Shown: positions 1 to 12,555 of the stretch, piece after piece
Position numbering within the stretch: the first letter of the stretch is position 1
How the letters are laid out: each line of letters begins with the position of its first letter
NCBI GenBank assembly: GCA_964369185.1
Contig: CAYJEN010000001.1
Coordinates: 32,907 to 96,906, forward strand
DNA: 64,000 nucleotides
Direction: 5' to 3'
Source of the DNA: an uncultured Desulfovibrionaceae bacterium
GTDB taxonomy: Bacteria > Desulfobacterota > Desulfovibrionia > Desulfovibrionales > Desulfovibrionaceae
The notes under the pieces: model-generated
The model's database searches: none
What the model was told of the DNA's origin: nothing
What the model saw: only the letters and a program-made list of their open reading frames with translations
Program-made: the position numbers and the translations under genes

Positions 1-3000
1 AAATAGCCTCACTCAATAACTTAGAAACACTTGACATATTTTTACCGTCGTTTGTTTCTTCATTGAATATCTTTGTAAGTTCTGTGTTTACTTCTGAATT
101 CCCCTTACAAACCATTCTCATTGAGTCAAGCATAGTTTTTGGCGAAAGGTGGTCGCACAAGATTGAACCATCTTTTGAAATATATACCATATAAAAAGGG
201 TGTAGCCTATTTTTACTTTGTATATGTATGTCTTTATTGATGTTTTTCAAAATAAAGATAATCCCTTCTTCGGAGCTTTCCTTTTTCTGTGCAAGAGCAT
301 GAAGTCCGTAAGGAGCTTTTTCTATATCGTTGTTATCTTTTATATAGTCGAGCAAATCCATTCTGAACTCATTCAAGCCTAAGTCCATAATAGAAATACC
401 GCCGTTTATATCCTCTAAATCAACAACTTCATCTTGAAGCTTTTCAAGTTGTTTTTTACGGTATTCAAGGTCTATTTTTTCTTCGTCTGAAATGATGTTG
501 TCATCGCCTGTAGCCGTCATATCAACGATTTTCATTCTTGTTTCGACTCTTGACTTTAGATTAATATATTCATCTAATGAAATATCAGGCCAAAAATTAA
601 GAAGCTGAATAACAGAATTTTCACTGCCTATGCGGTCAATACGTCCAAAGCGTTGAATGATACGTACAGGATTCCAATGTATATCATAATTTATAAGGTA
701 ATCACAATCCTGCAAATTTTGCCCTTCTGAAATACAATCTGTTGCTATGAGGATGTCAATAGTATCAGTATTATTCGGCATGGTAAGATGCTTTTCTTTT
801 GATTTAGGCGAAAAACAAGAAAGCACTTCATTGAGATTTGCTTTGAATTTTGGAATTGTTGTTCTGCCATCAACACTACCTGTTATCATCGCTGTGTTGA
901 GATTATACTTTTCTTTTATAATTTGGCTTACATTATCATAGAGATAGCTTGCCGTATCAGCAAAAGCTGTGAATATAATAATCTTTTTATTATCATTATT
1001 TATAGGATTTTTGATTTTATCGTCAATCACGGAAAACAATTCTTGAAGTTTTGCATCATGTTTTGGAGTGATTAGATATATTAAATCAGCAAGTTCTTGT
1101 AAAACAAGTAAATCATGTTCTAAATTTCTTTTCCATGAAGTGTAGTCCATATCTTCAAGTTTTACTTTTACATCTTTCCCGACAGAAAAGAAGTTCATAT
1201 TTTGATCGTCAATGTCATAATCTTCTTGTCTTTCAGAAGAAATATCTGTGAGCAAAATAGTTTTAGCTTCACGAGTAGCTTCAAAATCTTCAATATTTTT
1301 TATAACGCCATCAATCAAATCTTTAATTCTTGATAGAGTAAGACTAAATGCATAGACAGAGCTTTCCATTCTTTTCATTAGGTTGATAGCAGTAAGTTTT
1401 TTAATACCTTGTTCACGCCCTTTTGCAAAGTCTATATCTTTATTGAAGAGTTGATCTGCGTATTTTTGCCTTTTGCTTGGCTGCACATAAAAGAGCGGTG
1501 TATAGACAGCTAAAGTAAGCTTCATAAGATTATCAAAAATGATATTATATGAAATGGCATTATCAAGATTTGTTAAAGGGGGACGTTTTGAGATAGGCTT
1601 GTTCCTTGTTGGAAATGTGCCTATATCAGTCATATCGTAATGTTTTTCTATTTGCTTTCTTGAGCGTGCTATTGTCACACTATCTAAGACTTCAAAGAAA
1701 TCGAAATCAAGCATTTTTTGAAGCTCTGTAGTAGTTCGCTCAGCTACGGGAAGATTACTCCAAATATTGAAAACCCTTTGAGCTGTCCTAAAAATATCGT
1801 TTATGGAATGCTTTGTATTAAGCTTAGTGTCAATATTCTCCACATCACCTTCATAGGCCAAAGCAAGCTGATTTTTTAAGTCGTTGAAGCGGTTATTAAC
1901 AGGCGTTGCGGAAAGCATAAGAATTTTTGTCTGAATACCTGCTTTAATAACTTGATTCAAAAGCATAGTGTAGCGATTTTCTTTGTCATTTTCCTTAGTT
2001 TTTATTTCTCCGCCATTTCTGAAATTATGACTTTCATCAATGACAATCAAACCAAAGTTTGCCCAATTGAGTTTAGACAAATCAATACCGTTCGAGAAAC
2101 CTTTTTCTCTGCCTAAGTCTGTATGATAAAGAACCGTATAGGAAAATCTATCGCCTTGTAAAATATTGTTAACGTAGTTTCCTTTATAGGTGTTCCAGTT
2201 GTCAGCAAGTTTTTTTGGGCAAAGCACAAGCACGTCTTTATTTCTGCTTTCATAATACTTTATAACTGAAAGAGCCGTAAACGTTTTACCAAGTCCAACG
2301 CTATCTGCTAGAATACAGCCATTATACTTTTCAAGCTTTGTAATAATACCAAGAGCAGCATCTTTTTGAAAGTTGTAAAGCTTATTCCAAATAAGGCTTT
2401 CTTTAAAACCAAGCGCCTCGTTTGGAAGCACATCTTCTGAAATATCTTCTAAAAACTCATTAAAAATATGATATAGGGTGAGGAAATAGATATATTCAGG
2501 GGAATTTTCTTTATATACAGCAGTTATATTGTTAATGACCTCATCGGTAACATCTAAGAGTTTTTCCTTGTCATTCCATAGCTGAGTAAATAGATCCAAG
2601 TAATGTTTATTACTTGGTGAAGCTATACGATTAACGACATTGTACGCGTTATTTCCTCGTTCACTACCAATTTCAACGGTTGTAAATCCATTTATAGGAG
2701 TGTATGTGTATTGTTTTTCAATACCGTCAATGTTTGCCTCAGTATTCAAGAAGCCTTGCATAAATTGAGAAGTTACATTAGATTTAAACGTAACTTTCTT
2801 TCGTATCCAGTCAGCACATTCTTTGGCTATCGCTTTTTGACTAAGTTCGTTACGAAGCTTTACTTCAAATTCAGAACCATAAAGTGAACGTTCACGATTT
2901 AATTGTGGAATATAAAATTCTCTTTTTTCTTTAGGGGCTTTTTCGTTCGTAAAGGTCGGTGAAGTAAATATAAAGTCAAGTTGCTTTACTTGTTTTAGTC

Positions 3001-3634
3001 TTCTTTTTAATTCTTCATACGCAAAAATAGAAAAAGAATCAGAAGCAATAGATACTTTTGCTCCTTTTTTTATTGTCTTTTCTAAATCATCTCTTACAAT
3101 ATTGTTTATATTGTCAAAAATCTTAATTACATCAGTGTCTTGAGGTGCTAAGTTGACGATTTGTTTTTGATTTTTTCTTGCATAGTCAACAGTATATTCT
3201 GTTCCACCTAGTTTTCCGTCATAATAACAAATGAGCAAAGAAGAATTATCAACAAGATATTCATTTCTTAAGTAATACGCTCCTCGGCTATAATTTTCAG
3301 CAAGGGTAATAATTTCACTTGCATTATCAGTTAGCAGATTATATTCTTTTGATATTCTTTCTTCATCATTATCGGTTTTTGCAAAAGGAAGTACACAAAC
3401 AAGCTTTATATGAGAATAGATTTTCTTTAGCTCAACAACAGCTTCGCCTGCGTAAGTATCAAAACCATTTGCCATACCCACGAGAAAAGTATCATACCCC
3501 ATATCAATCGCTTGACTGACAGCATCAACTAAGCTTTTCTTGATAGTCTTCACTTCAAGGGAATTTTCATCACCTTGATTCGGGAGTTTAGCAGGTCTAT
3601 ATCCACTAAATGATACTGTTTTTTCTATTTGCAT
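1..3634 (-). CDS. SLOG (YpsA/DUF1273-type) + PLD-like N-domain + SNF2-family helicase fusion protein, C-terminus truncated by window edge
   Basis: Hand translation of the reverse strand from ATG 3634 stays open to position 1. The track lists no minus-strand ORF here, as expected for an ORF with no stop inside the window (same as hypF at the right edge). N-terminus: MQIEKTVSFSGYRPAKL...GMANGFDTYAGEAV...LPF...RNEYLVDNSSLLICYYDGKLGGTEYTV (YpsA-like). SNF2 motifs: ILADSVGLGKT, VIDESHNFRN, MLSATPVNN, QRFGRIDRIG. Confidence 0.8.
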   Translation of the reverse strand, partial: MQIEKTVSFSGYRPAKLPNQGDENSLEVKTIKKSLVDAVSQAIDMGYDTFLVGMANGFDTYAGEAVVELKKIYSHIKLVCVLPFAKTDNDEERISKEYNLLTDNASEIITLAENYSRGAYYLRNEYLVDNSSLLICYYDGKLGGTEYTVDYARKNQKQIVNLAPQDTDVIKIFDNINNIVRDDLEKTIKKGAKVSIASDSFSIFAYEELKRRLKQVKQLDFIFTSPTFTNEKAPKEKREFYIPQLNRERSLYGSEFEVKLRNELSQKAIAKECADWIRKKVTFKSNVTSQFMQGFLNTEANIDGIEKQYTYTPINGFTTVEIGSERGNNAYNVVNRIASPSNKHYLDLFTQLWNDKEKLLDVTDEVINNITAVYKENSPEYIYFLTLYHIFNEFLEDISEDVLPNEALGFKESLIWNKLYNFQKDAALGIITKLEKYNGCILADSVGLGKTFTALSVIKYYESRNKDVLVLCPKKLADNWNTYKGNYVNNILQGDRFSYTVLYHTDLGREKGFSNGIDLSKLNWANFGLIVIDESHNFRNGGEIKTKENDKENRYTMLLNQVIKAGIQTKILMLSATPVNNRFNDLKNQLALAYEGDVENIDTKLNTKHSINDIFRTAQRVFNIWSNLPVAERTTTELQKMLDFDFFEVLDSVTIARSRKQIEKHYDMTDIGTFPTRNKPISKRPPLTNLDNAISYNIIFDNLMKLTLAVYTPLFYVQPSKRQKYADQLFNKDIDFAKGREQGIKKLTAINLMKRMESSVYAFSLTLSRIKDLIDGVIKNIEDFEATREAKTILLTDISSERQEDYDIDDQNMNFFSVGKDVKVKLEDMDYTSWKRNLEHDLLVLQELADLIYLITPKHDAKLQELFSVIDDKIKNPINNDNKKIIIFTAFADTASYLYDNVSQIIKEKYNLNTAMITGSVDGRTTIPKFKANLNEVLSCFSPKSKEKHLTMPNNTDTIDILIATDCISEGQNLQDCDYLINYDIHWNPVRIIQRFGRIDRIGSENSVIQLLNFWPDISLDEYINLKSRVETRMKIVDMTATGDDNIISDEEKIDLEYRKKQLEKLQDEVVDLEDINGGISIMDLGLNEFRMDLLDYIKDNNDIEKAPYGLHALAQKKESSEEGIIFILKNINKDIHIQSKNRLHPFYMVYISKDGSILCDHLSPKTMLDSMRMVCKGNSEVNTELTKIFNEETNDGKNMSSVSKLLSEAI

Positions 3635-3661
3635 ATATAGTCTCTACATAAAGTTAATGTG

Positions 3662-4534
3662 TTATGCTCTCTTACTTATACAGTATTTGCGAACTATGTA
3701 CCATAATATTATACCTACTAAAGAGAGAAACATTAGAAATATTATATAGATATCACTTGTCTCATGAAGAATAATGGCCGAATATATGAGTAGTATAAGC
3801 CAGCCCATAGTTACAATATATGCAGATGCAATTGTTAGTTTCGAAATAGACGCAACTACTGGAGCTCTTGGATTATGCGAAACAACTTTATGAAGGTTAC
3901 CCGTTACGTAGTACTCTAGCTTGTCAATATGTTTTTCCCAGTTTTCATACCACCTTTTTGAGCTTTTAGCAACCTCAATCCAAAATGTTGAAATCATAAA
4001 ACCAATATAGGCAACAATAGTAAGTGAAACTGGTAGAAAAAAATCAATATTTGAGATGATATTTTGATTTTTTTGTAAGTCGTCTGTTAGGAATTTAAAG
4101 GTGAAACTATATACACCAAAAATGAATGCTATCATTACCCAATAGTAAGTTGCTCGTTTCCACAAGAGTTCAATTTCAAACTTTCTTATGTCGTGTGCTT
4201 TTTCGAGAGCTTTTTCAATTTTCCTTTGGATAGTTTTTATATCTTGGTCTTCTAAATTTCCGAACATTTCTTCAAAATACTTTGCATCATCTAAGGGACG
4301 TTTTTCACCGTTTATATTTATCGTCCATCTCTCATAGACTTTATAATTGCCTTTTCTATTTTTAAATATACAGCCTAAAATAAAACCAATAAAAAATGTA
4401 AGTAGTACCAAAGGTAGCAGGGCATATATATTAAGTAAGAGCAATGTTATAAACAACAGAAAGAATAGTATAGCAAGAAAAAAACAGTCTAGTGTATTTG
4501 TTTTACTATTACAATGAACTTCATCTTTTTCCAT
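3662..4534 (-). CDS. Multi-pass membrane protein, unknown function (candidate membrane effector partnered with the SLOG-SNF2 gene)
   Basis: 290-aa ORF. Two N-terminal TM helices, a ~75-aa charged helical linker (KIEKALEKAHDIRKFEIELLWKR), then 4-5 more hydrophobic helices. SD AAGGAG before the ATG. Stops 27 bp before the helicase start on the same strand. Confidence 0.65.
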   Translation of the reverse strand: MEKDEVHCNSKTNTLDCFFLAILFFLLFITLLLLNIYALLPLVLLTFFIGFILGCIFKNRKGNYKVYERWTININGEKRPLDDAKYFEEMFGNLEDQDIKTIQRKIEKALEKAHDIRKFEIELLWKRATYYWVMIAFIFGVYSFTFKFLTDDLQKNQNIISNIDFFLPVSLTIVAYIGFMISTFWIEVAKSSKRWYENWEKHIDKLEYYVTGNLHKVVSHNPRAPVVASISKLTIASAYIVTMGWLILLIYSAIILHETSDIYIIFLMFLSLVGIILWYIVRKYCISKRA

Positions 4535-4821
4535 AATATTACTCCTTAGTAGTGATTAGAAAATTGCGCTGAAATTTTTGATTATTTTGATATTGCTTTT
4601 GCTAGGTGAAAACATATACTAATGTTGGTGTAAGTTTAATAACTTGGATAGTTTAAAAAGCTTTAAACATACATAAATGAAAAGAAAGGCTAAAATCTTA
4701 TTATATACATTTATCACTCCCAAAAAAATGTTCAAATAGTAAAAAATAATGAAACATATAATATATTATATTGTATATTATAATTTTAGCAAAATTTATA
4801 AAATTTGTAAATCTCACAATA

Positions 4822-6315
4822 TCACCTCCCCAGATCTAAATTAACCTCCTTATGACTTCTATCTTCCATGCGAATTCCCCGCATGATTTCATACTGCTTA
4901 CCTATATCCTTTGCATTTTTGGTAGTAGTGACCTTGCGCCCGTAGTCTATGACTTTTGCTCCGTCGGAAAAAGTAAAGAGAATTGCTCCATTTGGAGTAA
5001 TTTTATAGATAAAATCAAGTTCTGTACTTGCTTTCATGTCGGCTACAGCAAACAAAATATTTTTAGACTTAGATGTGAAATCAAGACTCGATATTTCTTT
5101 TTTTGTCGACCAGTTTTCATGGCTTTGTTTCAAGGAATTAAGAACAGTACCTTTAGCTCTAAGATCAAGTTTTTTGTGAGTAGGGGAGTTTTGTTTGCGG
5201 AGCACTTCTAAAGCCTCTTCATTGCCTTCTGTAGCTTTTTTTATAAGGAAATCCTGCCAATTACTGCTATCGACAGTCAGGTTTTGTCGTAGCTCATTTA
5301 TTTCAAGCTGTTTCTTGATTTTGACTTGTTTTAGTAGTTCAAATTGAGTCCTTTTACTAACTGCAAGTCCACTAAGTCGTAATTCTTCCTTGAACCACTT
5401 CTGCTTGATTTTATTGATTTCTTCAAGCTTTGTTGTCTGAACAAACTCTCTCCAAAGTAAACTTTTATAATCGATTGCAAGCGGTTTTCTTTTATACCAA
5501 TCTTTAGCTTTGATATCTTGATTACTTGCTTGGTAGTTACCAAAACGTTCAGTCATTTTTTTATAGGAAAGTTCACGGTTAAATTTACTTGCTTTCAAGG
5601 ATTGTTTTCCTTCTTTATTCTTGATAGATAGACCATTTGCTCGTGGTTTTATTTCAAGTCCATATTGTCCAAAGACTTGATGAACCTCTTCCCAAGAATT
5701 TAGATTCTCAAGTTGTTCTATAATCTCGTCATGCTTACCCATCACAAAACGCTCAAAGCTTTCTTCGCCTGTAAGGCTTTCTTTAGTCGCTGAACCTTGT
5801 GAAAGCTTAGGGGAGTCATCTAATGGATCAATACCGTTATCTATGGAAAGTCCGTATTCTCGCTCTAGTTGACGGCACAAAATATCACGAGATTTGTAAT
5901 CTTGAAAAGGTTCGTGTCTTGTAAGTTTATCAATGTGAATCATATTGTAGGCTATATGCATGTGAATATTATCAGTATTTATATGTACCCCACAATGTCT
6001 TTGATGCTCTGTAAAGCCAAGTATTTCTGCAAAGCGTTTTTCTATGCTTTTGAAGTCGTCAGAGGTGAGCTTATCTTCATCTTCCATACGGAATGATATC
6101 AGTAAATGATATGTTTTTTCTTTTTTAGTTCGAGTATTTAGCTCTTGAGTTGCTTCGACTTCTTCAATTGCAAGATTGTAATCGTCACTATTCCACGCAC
6201 CTGCAACCCATGAAAGCAAACACTTTTCCCCTTTATGACTTGCATCGGCAATATAGTTTGCAAGTCTGCGGTAGTTATCATTTTCCGCTTTACAGGTTAT
6301 ATGCTTACTAATCAT
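4822..6315 (-). CDS. traI: Conjugative/mobilization relaxase, RP4 TraI-like (MOBP family)
   Basis: N-terminus MISKHITCKAENDNYRRLANYIAD... (candidate catalytic Tyr), TYHLLISFR, and the His triad HINTDNIHMHIAYN. Closely parallels the RP4 TraI N-terminal relaxase domain as I recall it. 4-bp overlap with the upstream accessory gene. Confidence 0.85.
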   Translation of the reverse strand: MISKHITCKAENDNYRRLANYIADASHKGEKCLLSWVAGAWNSDDYNLAIEEVEATQELNTRTKKEKTYHLLISFRMEDEDKLTSDDFKSIEKRFAEILGFTEHQRHCGVHINTDNIHMHIAYNMIHIDKLTRHEPFQDYKSRDILCRQLEREYGLSIDNGIDPLDDSPKLSQGSATKESLTGEESFERFVMGKHDEIIEQLENLNSWEEVHQVFGQYGLEIKPRANGLSIKNKEGKQSLKASKFNRELSYKKMTERFGNYQASNQDIKAKDWYKRKPLAIDYKSLLWREFVQTTKLEEINKIKQKWFKEELRLSGLAVSKRTQFELLKQVKIKKQLEINELRQNLTVDSSNWQDFLIKKATEGNEEALEVLRKQNSPTHKKLDLRAKGTVLNSLKQSHENWSTKKEISSLDFTSKSKNILFAVADMKASTELDFIYKITPNGAILFTFSDGAKVIDYGRKVTTTKNAKDIGKQYEIMRGIRMEDRSHKEVNLDLGR

Positions 6316-6632
6316 ATTCTTCTGAGAGCCCTTTTTAATTCAAGCTGCCTTCTTTCTATTTCCTTTAGTAGAGGGCGAAAATCTTGTGGGTTATCCTTTT
6401 CGGTTATTGCAAGCTTTAAAAGACCGCCAAGTCGACCTAAGTCCCCATTGATTTTCAATAATTCTCTTCTTGCCTGTGCATCTTCACGGCTTACTACAGG
6501 AGTTCCAAGGCATACTGCTCGTGCAAAACTTGAGATTGTCATACCTGCACGACTGCTTGAGTCAATGATTTGTTGGTATTCATTTTTTGTGAGGTAAACC
6601 CTCATCATAATTTCTCTAATTTCTTTCTTCAT
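6312..6632 (-). CDS. traJ: Relaxosome accessory DNA-binding protein (TraJ/MobC-like, RHH type)
   Basis: 106 aa, directly upstream of and overlapping the relaxase. The motif INGDLGRLGGLLKL matches what I recall from RP4 TraJ. Placed between the oriT-like site and the relaxase. Confidence 0.7.
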   Translation of the reverse strand: MKKEIREIMMRVYLTKNEYQQIIDSSSRAGMTISSFARAVCLGTPVVSREDAQARRELLKINGDLGRLGGLLKLAITEKDNPQDFRPLLKEIERRQLELKRALRRI

Positions 6633-6717
6633 TTTTCCTCTTTCTTATCACGTTGAGCTTTAGCGAATAAGGCAAACTCGATTATTATCGAGCAGGCTAT
6701 AAAGTTGCTTCTTTAAA

Positions 6718-6745
6718 AAAGTAAGCTTACTTTATCTGTCCTGCC
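6718..6745 (+). other. Candidate oriT core: 16-bp perfect palindrome plus RP4-type nick motif (predicted nick between 6743 and 6744)
   Basis: AAAGTAAGCTTACTTT (6718-6733) followed by ATCTGTCCTG|CC. Compare the RP4 nic region, ..CTTCACCTATCCTG|CCC, recalled from memory. Lies upstream of the traJ-like gene, as in RP4. Confidence 0.55.
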
Positions 6746-6971
6746 TTTTGGATTTGAGGAGCATTATAACAAAAAAAGGAAAATAATGATAGTGTTTATC
6801 AAAACTTTCCTTTTATTCGTAGGTATTCTCTGAATTGGTTTGATTTTTTGATAGATTGCCTTAGAAGTGCTTTATTTTGCTTTGTTTTAGCCTTATTTAT
6901 TCAAAAAAAATCAAATTCTTACTCTTGAGTGATATTTTTTATATAAACTAGTTCTTCGTAGCAAAGATTAT

Positions 6972-7000
6972 TTGCAAATAAAAAATATACAGATTATAAT
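6972..7000 (+). promoter_or_regulatory. Sigma70-like promoter for the nuclease-domain gene
   Basis: TTGCAA (6972-6977), 17-nt spacer, TATAAT (6995-7000). A small inverted repeat GCAAA-GATTA-TTTGC overlaps the -35. Confidence 0.4.
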
Positions 7001-7044
7001 AAATAAAGAAGTAAAATAAACTGATTTAAATACATGGAGGAAAT

Positions 7045-8103
7045 ATGTCAAAAAGTAAGACTCCAATTATCTTTTTCAACATAGGGTGGATGAAGAACTA
7101 TCAAGGTCAGACAAAAGAAGATATGGTAATTTCAAATTTTGGCTATGTTGTTGAAAATAAGACTGGGCATGAACAATTTAATTTTTTGGAAAAAGATGGA
7201 GATGTGTTTGGATATGTACCTCTAAAGTGGTATAAAGGTAATAAACCTACAAAGATTGGAATTGAAAGATTAGGTGCAGGAAGCAAAGATGCTTTTATAG
7301 AAGGTGTGACTGTTGTTTTTATTTCAAAAAATCCTTACGCAAAAGGTACAAGAGTTGTTGGTTGGTATCAAAATGCAACAGTTTATAGAGAACCAAAACC
7401 TCTTGAAGATAGGCTTATTCAAGGGCATTCGCAATATTACTATGCTCGTGCAGACAAAGAAAACTGTTTTTGTATACCAGAAGATGAGAGAGAAATACTA
7501 ATACCTACTGCCGAAAAAAATAAAGAAAAAGTGAAAAAAAAAGGAGGCTATGGACAAACTCCAATTTGGTACGCAAGCGATCGTTTAGATGTTCAAAAAA
7601 TGGTTTTAACATATATTGATGATATTCAGAAAAAAGAAAGAACACTAAAAGTAAGTGAAGATGATTTTTTTAGGATAAAACTATCACAAGAAGATAAAAA
7701 AAAGATTGAAATAGTAGCTGTAGATACAGTTATTAAGAGCTATCAAGGCAAAGGTTATGAGGTTGTTAGTACTGAATCTGAGAACTGTGGCTGGGATTTA
7801 GTTGCTATGAAGGGTAAAAAAGAAGTTTATATTGAAGTCAAAGGTACCGCTGGAAAACAACTGTCGTTTCAGCTTACTCATAATGAGTACACTCAATTAA
7901 AAGAGAACTATGAAAAATACAGAATTGCATTTGTAAAAGATTGTCTACGTAAACCTCACTTGGAAATATACCGTATAGAGCGAGTCAAAAATAATAAAAA
8001 GATTGTATATAAAGGGGTAAAAATCACGAAAAAAGAAGAAAAGATATTCTACCTTACGGAACGGGTAGAAACTACAGCCTTCCCTACAGCAATTATAAAG
8101 TAA
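7045..8103 (+). CDS. Uncharacterised N-terminal domain fused to a PD-(D/E)xK nuclease domain (DUF3883-like); candidate restriction/defence nuclease
   Basis: 352 aa with SD GGAGG. C-terminus GWDLVAMKGKKEVYIEVKGTAGKQLSFQLTHNEYTQLKENYEKYRIAFV carries the D...E-x-K core and the layout I associate with DUF3883. The N-terminal ~200 aa (IIFFNIGWMKNYQG...GHEQFNF...RVVGWYQNATVY) is unassigned. Confidence 0.6.
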   Translation: MSKSKTPIIFFNIGWMKNYQGQTKEDMVISNFGYVVENKTGHEQFNFLEKDGDVFGYVPLKWYKGNKPTKIGIERLGAGSKDAFIEGVTVVFISKNPYAKGTRVVGWYQNATVYREPKPLEDRLIQGHSQYYYARADKENCFCIPEDEREILIPTAEKNKEKVKKKGGYGQTPIWYASDRLDVQKMVLTYIDDIQKKERTLKVSEDDFFRIKLSQEDKKKIEIVAVDTVIKSYQGKGYEVVSTESENCGWDLVAMKGKKEVYIEVKGTAGKQLSFQLTHNEYTQLKENYEKYRIAFVKDCLRKPHLEIYRIERVKNNKKIVYKGVKITKKEEKIFYLTERVETTAFPTAIIK

Positions 8104-8163
8104 GTAAGAAGGTACAGAGTGAATTTAGAGTATAATAAAGCCCATTATGCGAACCTATAGTAT

Positions 8164-8205
8164 TCTCAAAACACCTTTATTCTAAAGAGTAAAGGTGTTT
8201 TGAGA
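8164..8205. terminator. Bidirectional hairpin between convergent genes
   Basis: 16-bp perfect stem: TCTCAAAACACCTTTA / TAAAGGTGTTTTGAGA. Confidence 0.6.
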
Positions 8206-8209
8206 TTTA

Positions 8210-9195
8210 TTAATGTGCAATATTAGAATTTAAGGAGATTTTTTTTACCTCCTTAGAAGCTTGTTTTCTTGAGTTATTTTTGGATTTTCTCTGTTTTTTA
8301 GTACGTTTTTTAGGTTCTAGATTTTCAACTTTCTTTTTTGATGAAGAAAGCAAATCCCTTTCAAGTTTATTAATCGCAGGCTTTGTGTGATTGGGTGCAA
8401 GATGTGCATATCGCATAGTCATGCTGATATCTCGATGCCCAAGGACTTTGCCTATTTCAAAAATACTTACTCCATCTTGTGCTAACCATGAGGCGAAAGT
8501 GTGTCGTAAGGAATGAAATACAAATATATTACGCCTATCTGTGACACCGTTATTGAGTCCTGCCTCCTTCACAGCACTTCTGAAATGATTTGAAACATCA
8601 CGAGGAGGTTTTTCAAAAAAGATAAAAGCCATATTCATTTTTGCATAAGTCTTTATTATTCTAAACCTTTCGTCACCTAAATTCACATTTCTGGAGTGCT
8701 TGTTTTTTGTATCATATAGGTGAACTATTCCATTATTAAAATCAATATCTTCGTTCTTCATTTTGAAAATTTCACTTGCTCTCATTCCTGTATTTAGAGC
8801 TATAAAAGAAATATCATGCCATAATTGACTTCTTTTTTGAGAAGTGCTAAAAGATGTTCTGCTTCTTCTTTGGAAAGAAAGCGCTCGCGTTTATTGCTGA
8901 CTATGATTTTAGGAAATCTAGGCAGAGCCTTTTTATATTCTTCAAATTCAATAGCTCTGTTAAGGATTACTTTAAGTAAACCTAAACAATGTGTTACAGT
9001 TTTATGAGTCAAGCCTTTATTGTATAAAGTAGCCATAAAAGAATGAATATCTTTATATTTTAACTTTTTCAGATTAAAGTTTTTCCAGTAGGGGTGTAAA
9101 TGCTTCTTGTAACGGTAGGTTTCAGTTCGTAAACTTTTTTGATTAAGTGTGTTTGATTGAACATATACTTGCCATAAACTTTCAATTCTAATCAT
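8210..9195 (-). pseudogene. Tyrosine recombinase/integrase interrupted by a -1 frameshift in a homopolymer (T6 on the plus strand, 8833-8838)
   Basis: ORFs 8800-9195 (N-terminal SAM-like domain) and 8210-8785 (catalytic domain: HSLRHTFASW, LGHRDISMTMRYAHL) are collinear with the intact paralogue. Adding one A to the A6 run restores ..LKKRSQLWHDISFIALNTGMRASE, against the paralogue's ..YPRSELWHDITLFALNTGMRASE. Confidence 0.75.
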
Positions 9196-9371
9196 AATAA
9201 TGCCTCCGTATAAAATTTTTTTTGATAATTAAATACGGAGGAATATTGAGCTATTATAATCTAAGTGCGGGGTCGTTTTATGTTGCTTTTGAGTGGTTTT
9301 ATTTAATGATTACAACTTATTATTTAAACAATCTTGTTTTGCTAAGTTTTGCCTATTTCTACTTGTAATCT

Positions 9372-10247
9372 TTAGATTTTTTCTTGACTATAAAATGGGC
9401 TTATGGTATTCGGAATTAAGCTTATGGCGTGCTTCCCTTGCTCGGGTGCAAGATGGGCGTATCTCATTGTCATTTGTAGACTTTTATGTCCTAAAAGACT
9501 GCTTACAACTGCAAGAGCTACTCCTTCTTGAACAAGCCACGAGGCAAATGTATGTCTAAGTGAGTGAAATACAATTTGATTTCTTTTTTCAGTTATGTTG
9601 TGATTAAACTTTAGTTCCTTTACAACAGAACGAAAAATAGTAGAAGCATCTCGTATTTTGTTATTTGAAAATAAGTAGTTATAATTCTTTGAAGCATATT
9701 TTTGACTTATAGTGAAAGTGGTGTCATTGAGCGGTATTGTTCGATTACTTCCATTTTTGGTTTCAAAAAGTGTTATTGTACCTTGTGGGAAGTTGATATG
9801 TTCAGCTTTTAGTGTGTAAATCTCGCTTGCTCTCATTCCAGTATTGAGCGCAAAGAGGGTAATATCATGCCACAACTCACTTCGGGGGTATAAAGCTGTA
9901 AGAAGTGATCGAGCCTCCTCGATTGTAAGATAGCGATTCCTTTTATTATCATACTTCGGCATGCTAAAATGAGGAATATTGCCTTCATACACTTCAAATT
10001 GCTTGGCACGGTACATGATTGTTCTTAGAAGAGAAAGACAATGAGCAATGCTTTTCGGGCTGAGCCCTTTCTCTGCAAGACACTTTTTATAAGCCAAAAT
10101 GTTTTTCATCTTGATGTCAGACAGTTGCTTTCCTTGCCAATACTCTGCTAAATGCAGATTGTAACGATTACGATCTTTTCTAAGGTTTTGTTCTTTAGAA
10201 TTAGTTGTTTCGAGGTAAGTTGCCCATGCTTCAGTAATGCTACACAT
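9372..10247 (-). CDS. Tyrosine recombinase / phage-type integrase (intact)
   Basis: 291 aa. R (NTGMRASE), HxxR (HSLRHTFASW) and H...Y (LGHKSLQMTMRYAHL) are present. SD AAGGAG. Sits beside the tRNA remnant. Confidence 0.85.
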   Translation of the reverse strand: MCSITEAWATYLETTNSKEQNLRKDRNRYNLHLAEYWQGKQLSDIKMKNILAYKKCLAEKGLSPKSIAHCLSLLRTIMYRAKQFEVYEGNIPHFSMPKYDNKRNRYLTIEEARSLLTALYPRSELWHDITLFALNTGMRASEIYTLKAEHINFPQGTITLFETKNGSNRTIPLNDTTFTISQKYASKNYNYLFSNNKIRDASTIFRSVVKELKFNHNITEKRNQIVFHSLRHTFASWLVQEGVALAVVSSLLGHKSLQMTMRYAHLAPEQGKHAISLIPNTISPFYSQEKI

Positions 10248-10314
10248 AAAGATATCTCCTTATAGGTTGAACTATAAGGATTTATTAGATAAGTATAATT
10301 TTAGTCGTAGGTTT

Positions 10315-10340
10315 GGGTTCGAGTCCCGCCCTCGGTACCA
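10315..10340 (+). other. 3'-terminal tRNA gene remnant (T-loop, 3' acceptor strand, CCA); probable att site / island boundary
   Basis: GGGTTCGAGTCCCGC-CCTCGGT-A-CCA. No matching 5' acceptor strand (ACCGAGG or a wobble variant) occurs in the preceding 100 nt, so this is not a complete tRNA. Confidence 0.6.
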
Positions 10341-10361
10341 TTTAGTTTTTATAGAAACTTC

Positions 10362-10394
10362 AAGGGAATCAGCTAGTTATGATTCCCTTTTTTT
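10362..10394 (+). terminator. Rho-independent terminator downstream of the tRNA remnant
   Basis: AAGGGAATC-loop-GATTCCCTT followed by a T-run. Confidence 0.65.
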
Positions 10395-10554
10395 GTTGTG
10401 TAAATTCTGCAAATCATGCAATAAAGGGCTCTTAAGTTTGACTTTATGCAAAACATAACTACTATTATTATTAGGTGCATAGTGTGTTCCAAATACATTT
10501 GACCTATCATAATATAGTTTATTTTTTAGTATTGTTTAGAATTAGGATTGTTAC

Positions 10555-11112
10555 ATGTTAAATATTAGAAATCAAAATATTAACGAGGTTATAGAGCGAG
10601 AGCTCGAGATGTTTTTAAATGTTAAACAAGAATGTGGTCCGGCAACTTGTCAACAAAACCCAAATATGTTTCGTCATTGGAGATGGATGATTTTTTCTGT
10701 ACTTTCGGATGAATATATAGAATCGTATCTGCAAGACCTTATTGATGCAAAAACTAAGGGACGTAATCTTTTAACGGAAAAATATGCGCGTATGGATAAC
10801 CTTATTCCTTGTGTATCACCAAACATGGATAAAGTATTGGCAATAACTAAAGCAGAACGCTTTTGGCTTGTTGAACTGGGAAAAGAGTTTCCTTTGCAAT
10901 TTTCAAAACAAACAAAACGATTTGACTTTTATTTCTCAGCAGAAGTTGAAACTCTTTCTGAAAGAACCCTCGATTGTTATCTCGATTGTATAGCTAAGGC
11001 ACAAAAAGAAGGGCGTAACCTTGCAAAAGAACGCTATCAAAATATAAATGCCCGTTTAAACTACCCAAGTTTAGCAGAAAGAGAAGTTCAATTAGAAAAG
11101 CTTGTTGCATAA
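10555..11112 (+). CDS. Hypothetical protein (possibly DUF4125-like; low certainty)
   Basis: 185-aa ORF with an internal motif repeat (KTKGRNLLTEKYARM / QKEGRNLAKERYQNI). No catalytic motif recognised. Confidence 0.4.
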   Translation: MLNIRNQNINEVIERELEMFLNVKQECGPATCQQNPNMFRHWRWMIFSVLSDEYIESYLQDLIDAKTKGRNLLTEKYARMDNLIPCVSPNMDKVLAITKAERFWLVELGKEFPLQFSKQTKRFDFYFSAEVETLSERTLDCYLDCIAKAQKEGRNLAKERYQNINARLNYPSLAEREVQLEKLVA

Positions 11113-11187
11113 TTTATGCTTCTTTGTTCAAGACTTTATTTAGATAGTCACTGCAATACTTTTAAAATATTCTCTTTTTTAAAGTAA

Positions 11188-11219
11188 AAAGGACTATATA
11201 GTTATTTATATAGTCCTTT
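11188..11219. terminator. Hairpin between convergent genes
   Basis: AAAGGACTATATA / TATATAGTCCTTT, a 13-bp stem. Confidence 0.55.
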
Positions 11220-11289
11220 ATATTTTTATTTAAATAAAATTTAATATGTTTCTAAAATGATTACTTTTCTAATGAATACCTTAGTAAGA

Positions 11290-12555
11290 TTACTCACAAG
11301 GTACTAGGTCTTCAAGTGGGCATGGTTTACTATAAAGGTAGCCTTGAGAATAGTTTACACCATATTTTTCTAGCACAGCTTGAATTTCTTCATTTTCAAC
11401 AAATTCCGCAATTGTTTTTGCTCCAATAAGTTCCGCCATAAAGCAGATAGATCTTAGAATAATAACATTATTTTCAGATGTTGCTATGTCTTTAATTATA
11501 GTTCCGTCAATCTTAATGAATTTAGGAGAGAGAGAAATAATAGTCGTGTAAGTAGCATATCCTGAGCCAAAATCATCAACTGAGATACGGCAACCATAAC
11601 TACGTACTTTTTCAACGAAATCGAAAAGCATTTCATCTTGATAGTTTTCAGTTTCTACAAATTCAATTATTATGCGAGTAGCGTCAGGATATTGTTCTAA
11701 CTGCCTGTAAAACCATGTTCTAAAAGATTCGCTTGAAATGTCATAAGCTGAAATATTAATGGAAAGGTTTTCAGTGCGGTTACTAAATTCACTTAGAGTA
11801 CGCTTAATCATAGCGATACTTAAACGGTTATAAATTTTATATTTTTTTGCAATATCTAGGAAACGGTATGGAGTGTATACAACACCATTTGTATCCATTA
11901 TACGCATAAGTGCTTCATACTTATCTATTTTACCTGTTTCATTATTACGGATACCGTGATAGTAAGGAACAATTCGATTTTCTTTCATTGCAAAGTTGAT
12001 TAAATCAAGTATTTGTGCATCGTTTTTTATTGAGTTTGCAACGTCAAAACTATCTGGAGTTATAATAAAGTTTTCTCTTGTATCTTTTGCGTTCAAAAGA
12101 GCATGAAGAGCACGTTCAATGAGTCTGTCTTCTTGCAAAACAACAGCAAAACGTGAAACAGCACTTACATCAATTTCTGAAGAAGCTGCAGATTCAAACT
12201 GCATATAAAACTGTTTCATTAAGGCAAGAAAATCTTCCTTAGGAACATCTTCACCGGCGGCAAGAAGAAAGTTACTGTAGTTGTAACTATAAAGGAAAAT
12301 TTTATCGTCTAAGTTAAATAGTGTTAAGGCCTTTTGTACGTTATTTAAAACATCTTTACAACCGGCATAGTAGGTTTCTTCGCCATAGGCCGCAATCGAG
12401 AGATCTGCATTAACAACTTCGGTCATGCAAAGTTTATTTAACTTTAGTGCGCTTAAATCTTGGCGAAACTTTATCGAGTTCGGCACACCTAAGTTTTGGT
12501 CTATGTAAATACTATTTGGCATAAAAGCAATCTCCCTGCTGCATATTGCACTCAT
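11290..12555 (-). CDS. EAL-domain protein (putative c-di-GMP phosphodiesterase) with an uncharacterised or degenerate N-terminal domain
   Basis: C-terminal motifs IIEFVETE, DDFGSGYATYT, IKIDG, AEFVENEE, QGYLYSKP. Confidence 0.75.
   Translation of the reverse strand: MSAICSREIAFMPNSIYIDQNLGVPNSIKFRQDLSALKLNKLCMTEVVNADLSIAAYGEETYYAGCKDVLNNVQKALTLFNLDDKIFLYSYNYSNFLLAAGEDVPKEDFLALMKQFYMQFESAASSEIDVSAVSRFAVVLQEDRLIERALHALLNAKDTRENFIITPDSFDVANSIKNDAQILDLINFAMKENRIVPYYHGIRNNETGKIDKYEALMRIMDTNGVVYTPYRFLDIAKKYKIYNRLSIAMIKRTLSEFSNRTENLSINISAYDISSESFRTWFYRQLEQYPDATRIIIEFVETENYQDEMLFDFVEKVRSYGCRISVDDFGSGYATYTTIISLSPKFIKIDGTIIKDIATSENNVIILRSICFMAELIGAKTIAEFVENEEIQAVLEKYGVNYSQGYLYSKPCPLEDLVPCE

Follow-up and report, generated by a model that had tools for sequence, protein, structure and literature searches.

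A YpsA-type SLOG domain fused to the SNF2-family helicase of a predicted mobile restriction cassette

The stretch of DNA analysed here (the window, 64,000 nucleotides of contig CAYJEN010000001.1 from an uncultured Desulfovibrionaceae bacterium) begins with a minus-strand open reading frame (ORF) whose product belongs to both the YpsA SLOG-domain family and the SNF2 family of helicases. Judged from its relatives, this ORF encodes an accessory SNF2-family ATPase, the first product of a horizontally mobile four-gene restriction-type defence cassette. The window gene represents a rare variant, whose helicase carries an in-frame YpsA-clade SLOG domain at its N-terminus.

Domain architecture of the fused helicase

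The ORF runs from an ATG at position 3634 as a single uninterrupted frame of 1,211 codons and leaves the window at its left edge (window 1-3634). It is 100% identical to residues 1-1,211 of P0001, a database protein of 1,254 amino acids (aa), which leaves no more than 43 aa beyond the window edge. The initial annotation, made from the letters of the window alone, had read the product as a YpsA-type SLOG head, a PLD-like domain without an HxK motif and a complete SNF2 motor, and profile and fold searches supported all three parts.

The head matched the Pfam YpsA family PF06908 over aa 9-158 (E=3.7e-19; 69.8 bits, where the cutoff is 27.7; profile positions 3-155 of 168), and a phmmer search aligned aa 5-158 with the crystal structure of Bacillus subtilis YpsA (2NX2, E=1.7e-8). 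The fold agrees with the sequence: an AlphaFold model (AF2) of aa 1-430, with a mean predicted local distance difference test (pLDDT) score of 86.4 and a predicted template modelling (pTM) score of 0.79, was matched to 2NX2 by Foldseek with E=1e-9, a template modelling (TM) score of 0.81, a root-mean-square deviation of 2.3 Å and 23% identity. The motifs of the head are GYRP (aa 11-14), GMANGFD (53-59), RNEY (123-126) and GGTEYT (143-148).

Both halves of the motor, SNF2-rel_dom (PF00176, aa 433-591) and Helicase_C (PF00271, aa 878-1003), score above their Pfam cutoffs, and all the motifs quoted by the initial annotation were located, those of the motor being GLGKT (aa 447-451), DESH (533-536), SATP (575-578) and QRFGRIDRIG (994-1003). 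These correspond to SNF2 motifs I, II, III and VI and are invariant in 40 relatives. Matches of the motor in the Protein Data Bank include ISWI, SNF2 and RapA. The predicted fold of aa 171-1211 is of moderate quality (pLDDT 63) and yields generic SNF2/SF2 matches only. The same region matches the PADLOC model C3a139, named 'HKD+Snf2', with E=7e-115.

Between head and motor lies a domain that resembles the PLD fold. Foldseek matched it to a phosphatidylserine synthase (3HSI, E=1e-3) and to SauUSI (7CLG, probability 1.0, TMq 0.29), and the window protein had no match to Pfam PLDc. The catalytic pattern HxKxxxx[DE] was found before the Walker A motif in none of 120 family members; this domain therefore appears to be a degenerate PLD fold, very probably non-catalytic rather than a competent HKD enzyme.

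Restriction cassettes and recurrent SLOG fusions

In every relative with enough flanking sequence, the helicase gene is followed in the same order by genes for a DUF4391 protein (~200 aa), a Type III modification enzyme (Mod, an N6_N4 methyltransferase of ~610-660 aa) and a Type III restriction enzyme (Res, a ResIII-plus-RE_endonuc protein of ~1,010-1,045 aa). The order is the same in fused relatives (L001/L014, L002/3, L016, L018, L020 and L095-L099), in headless ones (L005-L008 and the Listeria plasmid pCFSAN074383, L094) and in a variant with a different SLOG domain (L004, described below). Since the order is conserved in these three classes, the helicase gene can be regarded as opening a Type III restriction-modification cassette with two extra genes. 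Mod and Res matched the PADLOC models MTase_III (E=2e-230) and REase_III (E=2e-300), both end to end.

The defence role that the initial annotation had proposed for the ORF is upheld, in a different form from the self-contained module that it envisaged: in relatives the helicase opens a conserved cassette, which a reader of the window could not see because the partner genes lie outside it. In the window genome a mobilisable island carries the helicase gene, and with it the predicted cassette, as cargo; the DUF4391, Mod and Res genes are predicted here from the relatives. Literature searches found no functional description of the cassette or of DUF4391 in such a role, and the DUF4391 profile matched none of the solved structures.

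Nor did the membrane protein gene just upstream of the helicase prove to be a linked partner, as had been supposed. It encodes an 'octameric membrane protein' (8xMP), and the two genes could be thought to form a ligand-gated module of their own, with a membrane effector and a translocase, since they share a strand, are separated by a 27 bp gap and have no terminator-like site between them (the promoter and terminator scan performed at chance level). However, 8xMP was rejected as a conserved partner: no homolog was found by tblastn in 131 related loci, and the genes listed for other cassettes, whether fused or headless, do not include one. Its plasmid homologs (in Pantoea, Klebsiella, Raoultella and Bacillus) are solitary hypothetical genes, and the conserved partners of the helicase lie downstream instead, which makes such a membrane module very improbable. 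No literature on the 8xMP family was found.

The spaces between the core genes of some cassettes (L001, L005-L008 and L148) are occupied by genes for a KAP NTPase, an AAA_15 ATPase, Abi_C, SLFN_AlbA_2 with SduA_C, and Abi_alpha. As these are defence-type genes in variable slots, the cassette appears to act as a small defence hotspot.

A survey for the same fusion, which the initial annotation had called for, recovered 21 full-length proteins of identical architecture by homolog search (1,239-1,262 aa, 59-74% identical, from different samples). An assembly error, the origin that would have undone the claim, can be set aside because these 21 independent proteins have one shared junction. Headless relatives start with M-[EK]-[IVL]-[FI]-[DN]-N precisely where the linker of the fused proteins ends (Ile170 of the window protein). 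Around 25 protein clusters carry the SLOG head, while thousands of relatives (~1,080 aa) are headless; the headless family is very large, since all 8,000 of the 8,000 candidates scored were significant, giving at least 8,000 relatives. Helicase-related sequence was also present on 584 plasmid records, many of them from Listeria, Enterococcus and Lactococcus, and 111 of these match at least 80% of the length; none of the matches listed covers the head.

Searches restricted to the head gave 80 loci among 185,579 species-representative genomes and 51 loci in a metagenome scan, the closest head among GTDB species representatives being 73% identical. All heads with at least 47% identity are fused to the helicase, with the exception of one on a contig that is too short (L021), two disrupted ones (L017 and L019), a truncated copy (P0126) and a remnant in L015 (P0121). 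The heads with 43% identity or less are all encoded by stand-alone genes (150-180 aa) that have no helicase gene close to them. When 1.84 billion representative proteins were searched exhaustively, 4,879 relatives of the head were returned, and the best 150 of the 4,879 were all short. The fused loci come from metagenome-assembled genomes (MAGs) labelled as Desulfovibrionaceae, Christensenellaceae, Oscillospiraceae, Lachnospiraceae and Rikenellaceae, which represent several phyla, and at each locus the G+C content of the fused cassette is near that of its flanks.

Among themselves the fused heads are 44-78% identical (mean 57%), compared with 70% for the body. Distances between heads correlate with those between bodies (Mantel r=0.68, with none of 5,000 permutations as high), and therefore head and body share an evolutionary history, and the fusions are not chimeras of recent date. 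In a rough neighbour-joining tree of the body, the fused forms fall into about five groups with headless ones interspersed, which suggests that the head was lost, gained or recombined during the history of the family.

Comparison of relatives reveals at least three occasions on which a SLOG domain became joined to such a motor. The first type is that of the window gene, with YpsA at the N-terminus. In the second, a YAcAr SLOG domain (PF10686) is attached to the C-terminus of the same helicase (aa 1091-1152; P0038, P0060, P0116 and P0117), after the conserved C-terminal region; this is the variant found in L004. In the third, a YpsA head that is 54-58% identical to that of the window protein is carried by a DrmD-like SNF2 protein (DrmD match E=1.5e-197), in a family where two of the best 120 members have such a head. 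One of these two loci (L148) encodes an SNF2 protein, a small protein, a large N6 methyltransferase and a ResIII enzyme, which is the order of the window family, although its small protein (208 aa) has no detectable relation to DUF4391 (hhalign probability 0.1). At the end of this cassette there is an extra stand-alone YpsA/DprA-like gene of 175 aa on the opposite strand. The other locus (L022) has an HNH protein in the small slot, two intervening genes on the opposite strand and a flanking PLDc_2 protein, and it stops before any Res.

A neutral accident, or an artefact of assembly or annotation that left a head without function, would fit with the dispensability of the head across most of the family and with the existence of truncated or remnant copies (P0121, P0126, L017 and L019). 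However, at least 21 independent fused sequences keep intact heads, their pockets are conserved (see below) and head and body diverge together. The fusion also occurs in MAGs labelled as several different phyla, and SLOG domains were joined independently to a second helicase family and to the opposite terminus. A head without function is therefore hardly credible.

Possible roles of the SLOG head

The pocket positions of the head (G11, R13, G46, G53, A55, G57, D59, P83, R123, N124, G143-G144-T145, T148 and A152) are invariant across the 21 fused heads, and their conservation among 161 stand-alone relatives is 84-100%. G57-F-D59 aligns with G-V-E of B. subtilis YpsA, and it is invariant in fused heads and present in 99% of the stand-alone relatives. 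Mutation of this GxD/E motif (G53/E55 in B. subtilis) inactivates B. subtilis YpsA (PMC6459960). Positions specific to the fused form are few: E146, the A163-P164 linker, and the minor sites G21 and V52. E146 is invariant in the 21 heads of the HKD-SNF2 type, is found in 10% of the stand-alone relatives, and gives way to Cys or Asn in the two DrmD-type heads. The conserved pocket, together with the co-divergence of head and body, points to a head that is functional and old.

The reading that we favour, with confidence evenly divided for and against it, is that the head could be a sensor or regulator that binds a nucleotide ligand and would make restriction by the cassette conditional on a nucleotide cue. 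The head would keep the activity of stand-alone YpsA, with predicted binding of a nucleotide similar to nicotinamide adenine dinucleotide (NAD+) or ADP-ribose, and would switch or tune the ATPase activity of the motor or its engagement with DNA. The cue could be the metabolic state of the host, or a nucleotide that a phage makes or depletes. The SNF2 motor and DUF4391 would in turn assist or license Mod and Res on foreign DNA, by analogy with the SNF2 components of DISARM, BREX and Dpd. There is a precedent in Thoeris, where the SLOG domain of ThsA senses an isomer of cyclic ADP-ribose (cADPR) (PMC7272460; PMC9503650).

A sensor is preferred to a DNA binder because the fused heads are acidic, with a mean isoelectric point of 5.1 (4.5-7.0) and a net charge of about -6, compared with a mean isoelectric point of 7.8 in the stand-alone relatives. 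The competing proposal is that the head binds single-stranded DNA in the manner of DprA or ShosA and recruits the motor to single strands arising from conjugation, transformation or phage replication intermediates. It draws on P0038, whose YAcAr tail has a weak DprA match (E=1.4e-4), on the carriage of the cassettes by plasmids and mobilisable islands, and on the Rossmann domain of ShosA, which binds single-stranded DNA and RecA (PMC11961720, PMC12961424). Binding by DprA and ShosA nevertheless depends on a basic surface and is lost in charge-reversal mutants (PMC11961720); moreover, the window protein has no match to DprA PF02481 at E<=0.1, and the head lacks the SAM and RecA-binding parts of these two proteins. 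A DNA-binding head is on balance unlikely.

Alternatively, the head could be an enzyme, either a LOG-like N-glycosidase or a protein that processes NAD+ or ADP-ribose, which would make or destroy a nucleotide signal or act on modified nucleotides. Nucleotide N-glycosidases occur among SLOG members, and a use of NAD+ has been predicted for the YpsA and YAcAr clades (PMC9503650, PMC7824862, PMC6459960); both points speak for such an activity, as do the invariant polar residues R13, D59, R123 and N124 and the enrichment of E146 in the fused heads. On the other hand, enzymatic activity has been shown for no YpsA protein, and the canonical LOG motif PGGxGTxxE is not reproduced, the head reading GGTEYT. 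E146 cannot be a universal catalytic residue because it is replaced in the DrmD-type heads. We regard an enzymatic head as improbable, to about the same degree as a DNA-binding one.

Several points weigh against a sensor that gates the restriction cassette. No ligand is known for any YpsA protein, which was still so in 2026 (PMC13042076), and no signal-generating enzyme (TIR, cyclase or ADP-ribosyltransferase) is conserved in or next to the related cassettes. Neither these cassettes nor the neighbourhood of the window gene contain a gene for a TIR, Sir2 or cyclase protein. The nearest solved folds after YpsA are those of the single-stranded DNA binders ShosA (8ZVA, Foldseek E=1.4e-6) and then DprA (structures at ~1e-4), a ranking that favours the DNA-binding proposal. 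Thousands of headless cassettes evidently work, so the head would be an optional modifier. As for the cassette itself, C3a139 denotes a neighbour cluster that was named in a survey of the gene surroundings of type III CRISPR loci. The DUF4391, Mod and Res genes of the window genome, whose place would be to the left of the window, were not recovered, and an exact 43-base scan of metagenome contigs gave no match.

Comparison with known systems helps to place the sensor proposal. Headless C3a139 helicases such as that of Listeria pCFSAN074383 are 53-68% identical to the window protein over aa 170-1211 and share the PLD-like/SNF2 layout and the downstream partners, but lack the 169 aa of SLOG head and linker. 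Conversely, B. subtilis YpsA (2NX2; PF06908/DUF1273) shares the fold of the head (TM 0.81), the GxD/E motif and the glycine-rich pocket motifs; however, it is a stand-alone protein of ~180 aa tied to cell division, synteny with gpsB and NAD-related phenotypes, whereas the window head is fused to the motor protein of a restriction cassette.

DrmD of DISARM is, like the window motor, an SNF2 ATPase accessory to a DNA methyltransferase-based defence (an N6-adenine methyltransferase in the DrmD system). It is the best named NCBIfam/PADLOC match for the motor, and the true DrmD-like proteins in L022 and L148 have a related YpsA head. By profile score, however, the window protein is not DrmD, with 155 bits against a cutoff of 610 for NF038317 and 101 against 950 for NF038318. 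DrmA, DrmB (DUF1998) and DrmC are also absent, and the related cassettes contain Type III Mod, Res and DUF4391 instead.

Thoeris ThsA follows a like design, with a SLOG domain joined to an anti-phage effector that is switched on when this domain binds the cADPR isomer (PMC7272460, PMC9503650). Its SLOG domain is of a different clade, and its effector is a Sir2 or transmembrane domain, an NADase rather than a DNA motor; the signal in Thoeris is made by ThsB (TIR), whereas no signal synthase is linked to cassettes of the window type. ShosA and DprA are the second- and third-best structural matches of the head, and ShosA serves a defence system, but these proteins bind DNA through basic surfaces and also possess SAM domains and RecA-binding parts, while the window head is acidic and has none of these parts.

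SLOG sensor-effector fusions and SNF2 accessory motors in methylation-based defence are thus both already known. The SLOG-SNF2 combination was found undescribed in searchable text, in agreement with the initial annotation, with figures and the SLOG classification of Burroughs et al. 2015, which possibly contains a YpsA-SNF2 architecture, standing outside that coverage. One member of the family bears the NCBI label 'SLOG family protein'.

A broader generalisation, which we put forward tentatively and consider rather doubtful, is that the SNF2 accessory motors of methyltransferase-linked restriction (Type III-plus-DUF4391 and DISARM-like) could be under the control of nucleotide-derived small molecules through SLOG sensors acquired independently at least three times. 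Restriction-modification is usually regarded as constitutive, sequence-based immunity. SLOG domains sit on the accessory motor in two helicase families and at either terminus, which suggests that nucleotide-derived cues may modulate some restriction systems. If so, there would be a direct bridge from signalling-type immunity, or from NAD and nucleotide metabolism, to classical restriction, and a handle on the ligand of the YpsA family. Experimentally, the fused form could give access to both the ligand and the function of YpsA, with an ATPase or restriction read-out that should be easier than the subtle cell-division phenotypes of stand-alone YpsA. The finding also highlights the four-gene helicase/DUF4391/Mod/Res cassette, which is widespread.

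Island genes and related loci

The mobilisable island that the initial annotation had recognised was confirmed by the genes found at 4.8-10.2 kb, which include a NikA-like gene, a MobA/VirD2 relaxase and integrases (Table 1). The first integrase gene is split into two ORFs and is therefore probably broken. The NOV_C protein may be a further defence-related cargo gene of the island. The composition of the island is not distinct, and no tRNA gene was detected by ARAGORN in the whole window, nor any Rfam family in window 1-12000.

Table 1. Coordinates of the features in the window and of related genes at other loci (locus names precede their coordinates)
Feature	Position	Strand	Remarks
SLOG / PLD-like / SNF2 helicase gene	1..3634	-	1,211 codons, open at window edge; complete protein 1,254 aa (P0001)
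YpsA-clade SLOG head, aa 1-165	3140..3634	-	PF06908; 2NX2 by sequence and fold
Short linker, aa 166-169	3128..3139	-	Met1 of headless relatives aligns with Ile170
Putative degenerate PLD-fold domain, aa 170-415	2390..3127	-	Without HKD motif; remnants FKSN (aa 283-286) and GFTTxDxGxExGxN
SNF2-type ATPase motor, aa 416-1040	515..2389	-	Pfam and motifs
Motor motif GLGKT	2282-2296	-	
Motor motif DESH	2027-2038	-	
Motor motif SATP	1901-1912	-	
Motor motif QRFGRIDRIG	626-655	-	
Conserved C-terminal region of helicase, aa 1041-1211	1..514	-	Final 43 aa beyond window
8xMP (PF24838) gene	3662..4534	-	27 bp upstream of helicase gene, between relaxase and helicase
MobA/VirD2 relaxase	4822-6315	-	Mobilisation module
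NikA-like gene	6312-6632	-	Mobilisation module (4822..6632)
NOV_C (PF13020) protein, 352 aa	7045-8103	+	Matches C-termini of PADLOC TmtA and HmaA
Tyrosine recombinase 1, split	8210-9195	-	SAM-like N-terminal ORF, 131 aa (8800-9195); catalytic ORF, 191 aa (8210-8785)
Tyrosine recombinase 2	9372-10247	-	Integrase gene
Loci of DrmD-like SNF2 (1,107-1,109 aa) with YpsA head	L148:7473-19871; L022:8423-18846		
Stand-alone YpsA loci	L038-L093, L111-L120; e.g. L038:9309-10444		Housekeeping-type gene pair with rsmG/gidB

In many Christensenellaceae and Clostridia genomes, the stand-alone YpsA relatives (33-40% identical to the head) lie directly 3' of rsmG/gidB, and GidB (PF02527) was the upstream neighbour in 25 of the 25 loci sampled. 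They are paired with this gene instead of gpsB, the partner of ypsA in Bacillus. At one stand-alone locus (L043), the opposite strand gives a weak methyltransferase match. A split arrangement, in which a separate SLOG gene would adjoin a headless cassette, was found neither in L004-L008 nor in L094, and the only extra stand-alone YpsA gene, that of L148, sits beside a fused head.

One short gene was considered as a possible donor of the head and was rejected. Its product, P0121, is a stand-alone protein that is 75% identical to the head, but it is a truncation remnant, since it has an insertion specific to P0001 and P0002 and its final residues are the opening ones of the helicase. P0126, too, comes from a fused gene that has been truncated. 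A recurrent pair of an RsgA-like GTPase with YpsA, prompted by L015 and by some phage annotations, was dropped because the GTPase is confined to L015.

The closest relatives (L014-L016, from GCA_964369165, GCA_964370095 and related MAGs) lie on contigs that bear the label 'uncultured Desulfovibrionaceae' or 'Mailhella'. The G+C content of these contigs is 30-35%, akin to the 31-41% of the window; such values are unusually low for Desulfovibrionaceae, and the bin labels of these contigs may be unreliable.

The fused-type gene of P0126 (L010-L012, 8001-8639) is interrupted by a contig break at the identical point in three assemblies, and it sits on an element with a D5_N primase, a serine recombinase and a NADAR gene. 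A D5_N primase and a serine recombinase are also found upstream of the YAcAr variant in L004 (upstream of 10001), and therefore the cassette appears to be mobile on such elements as well.

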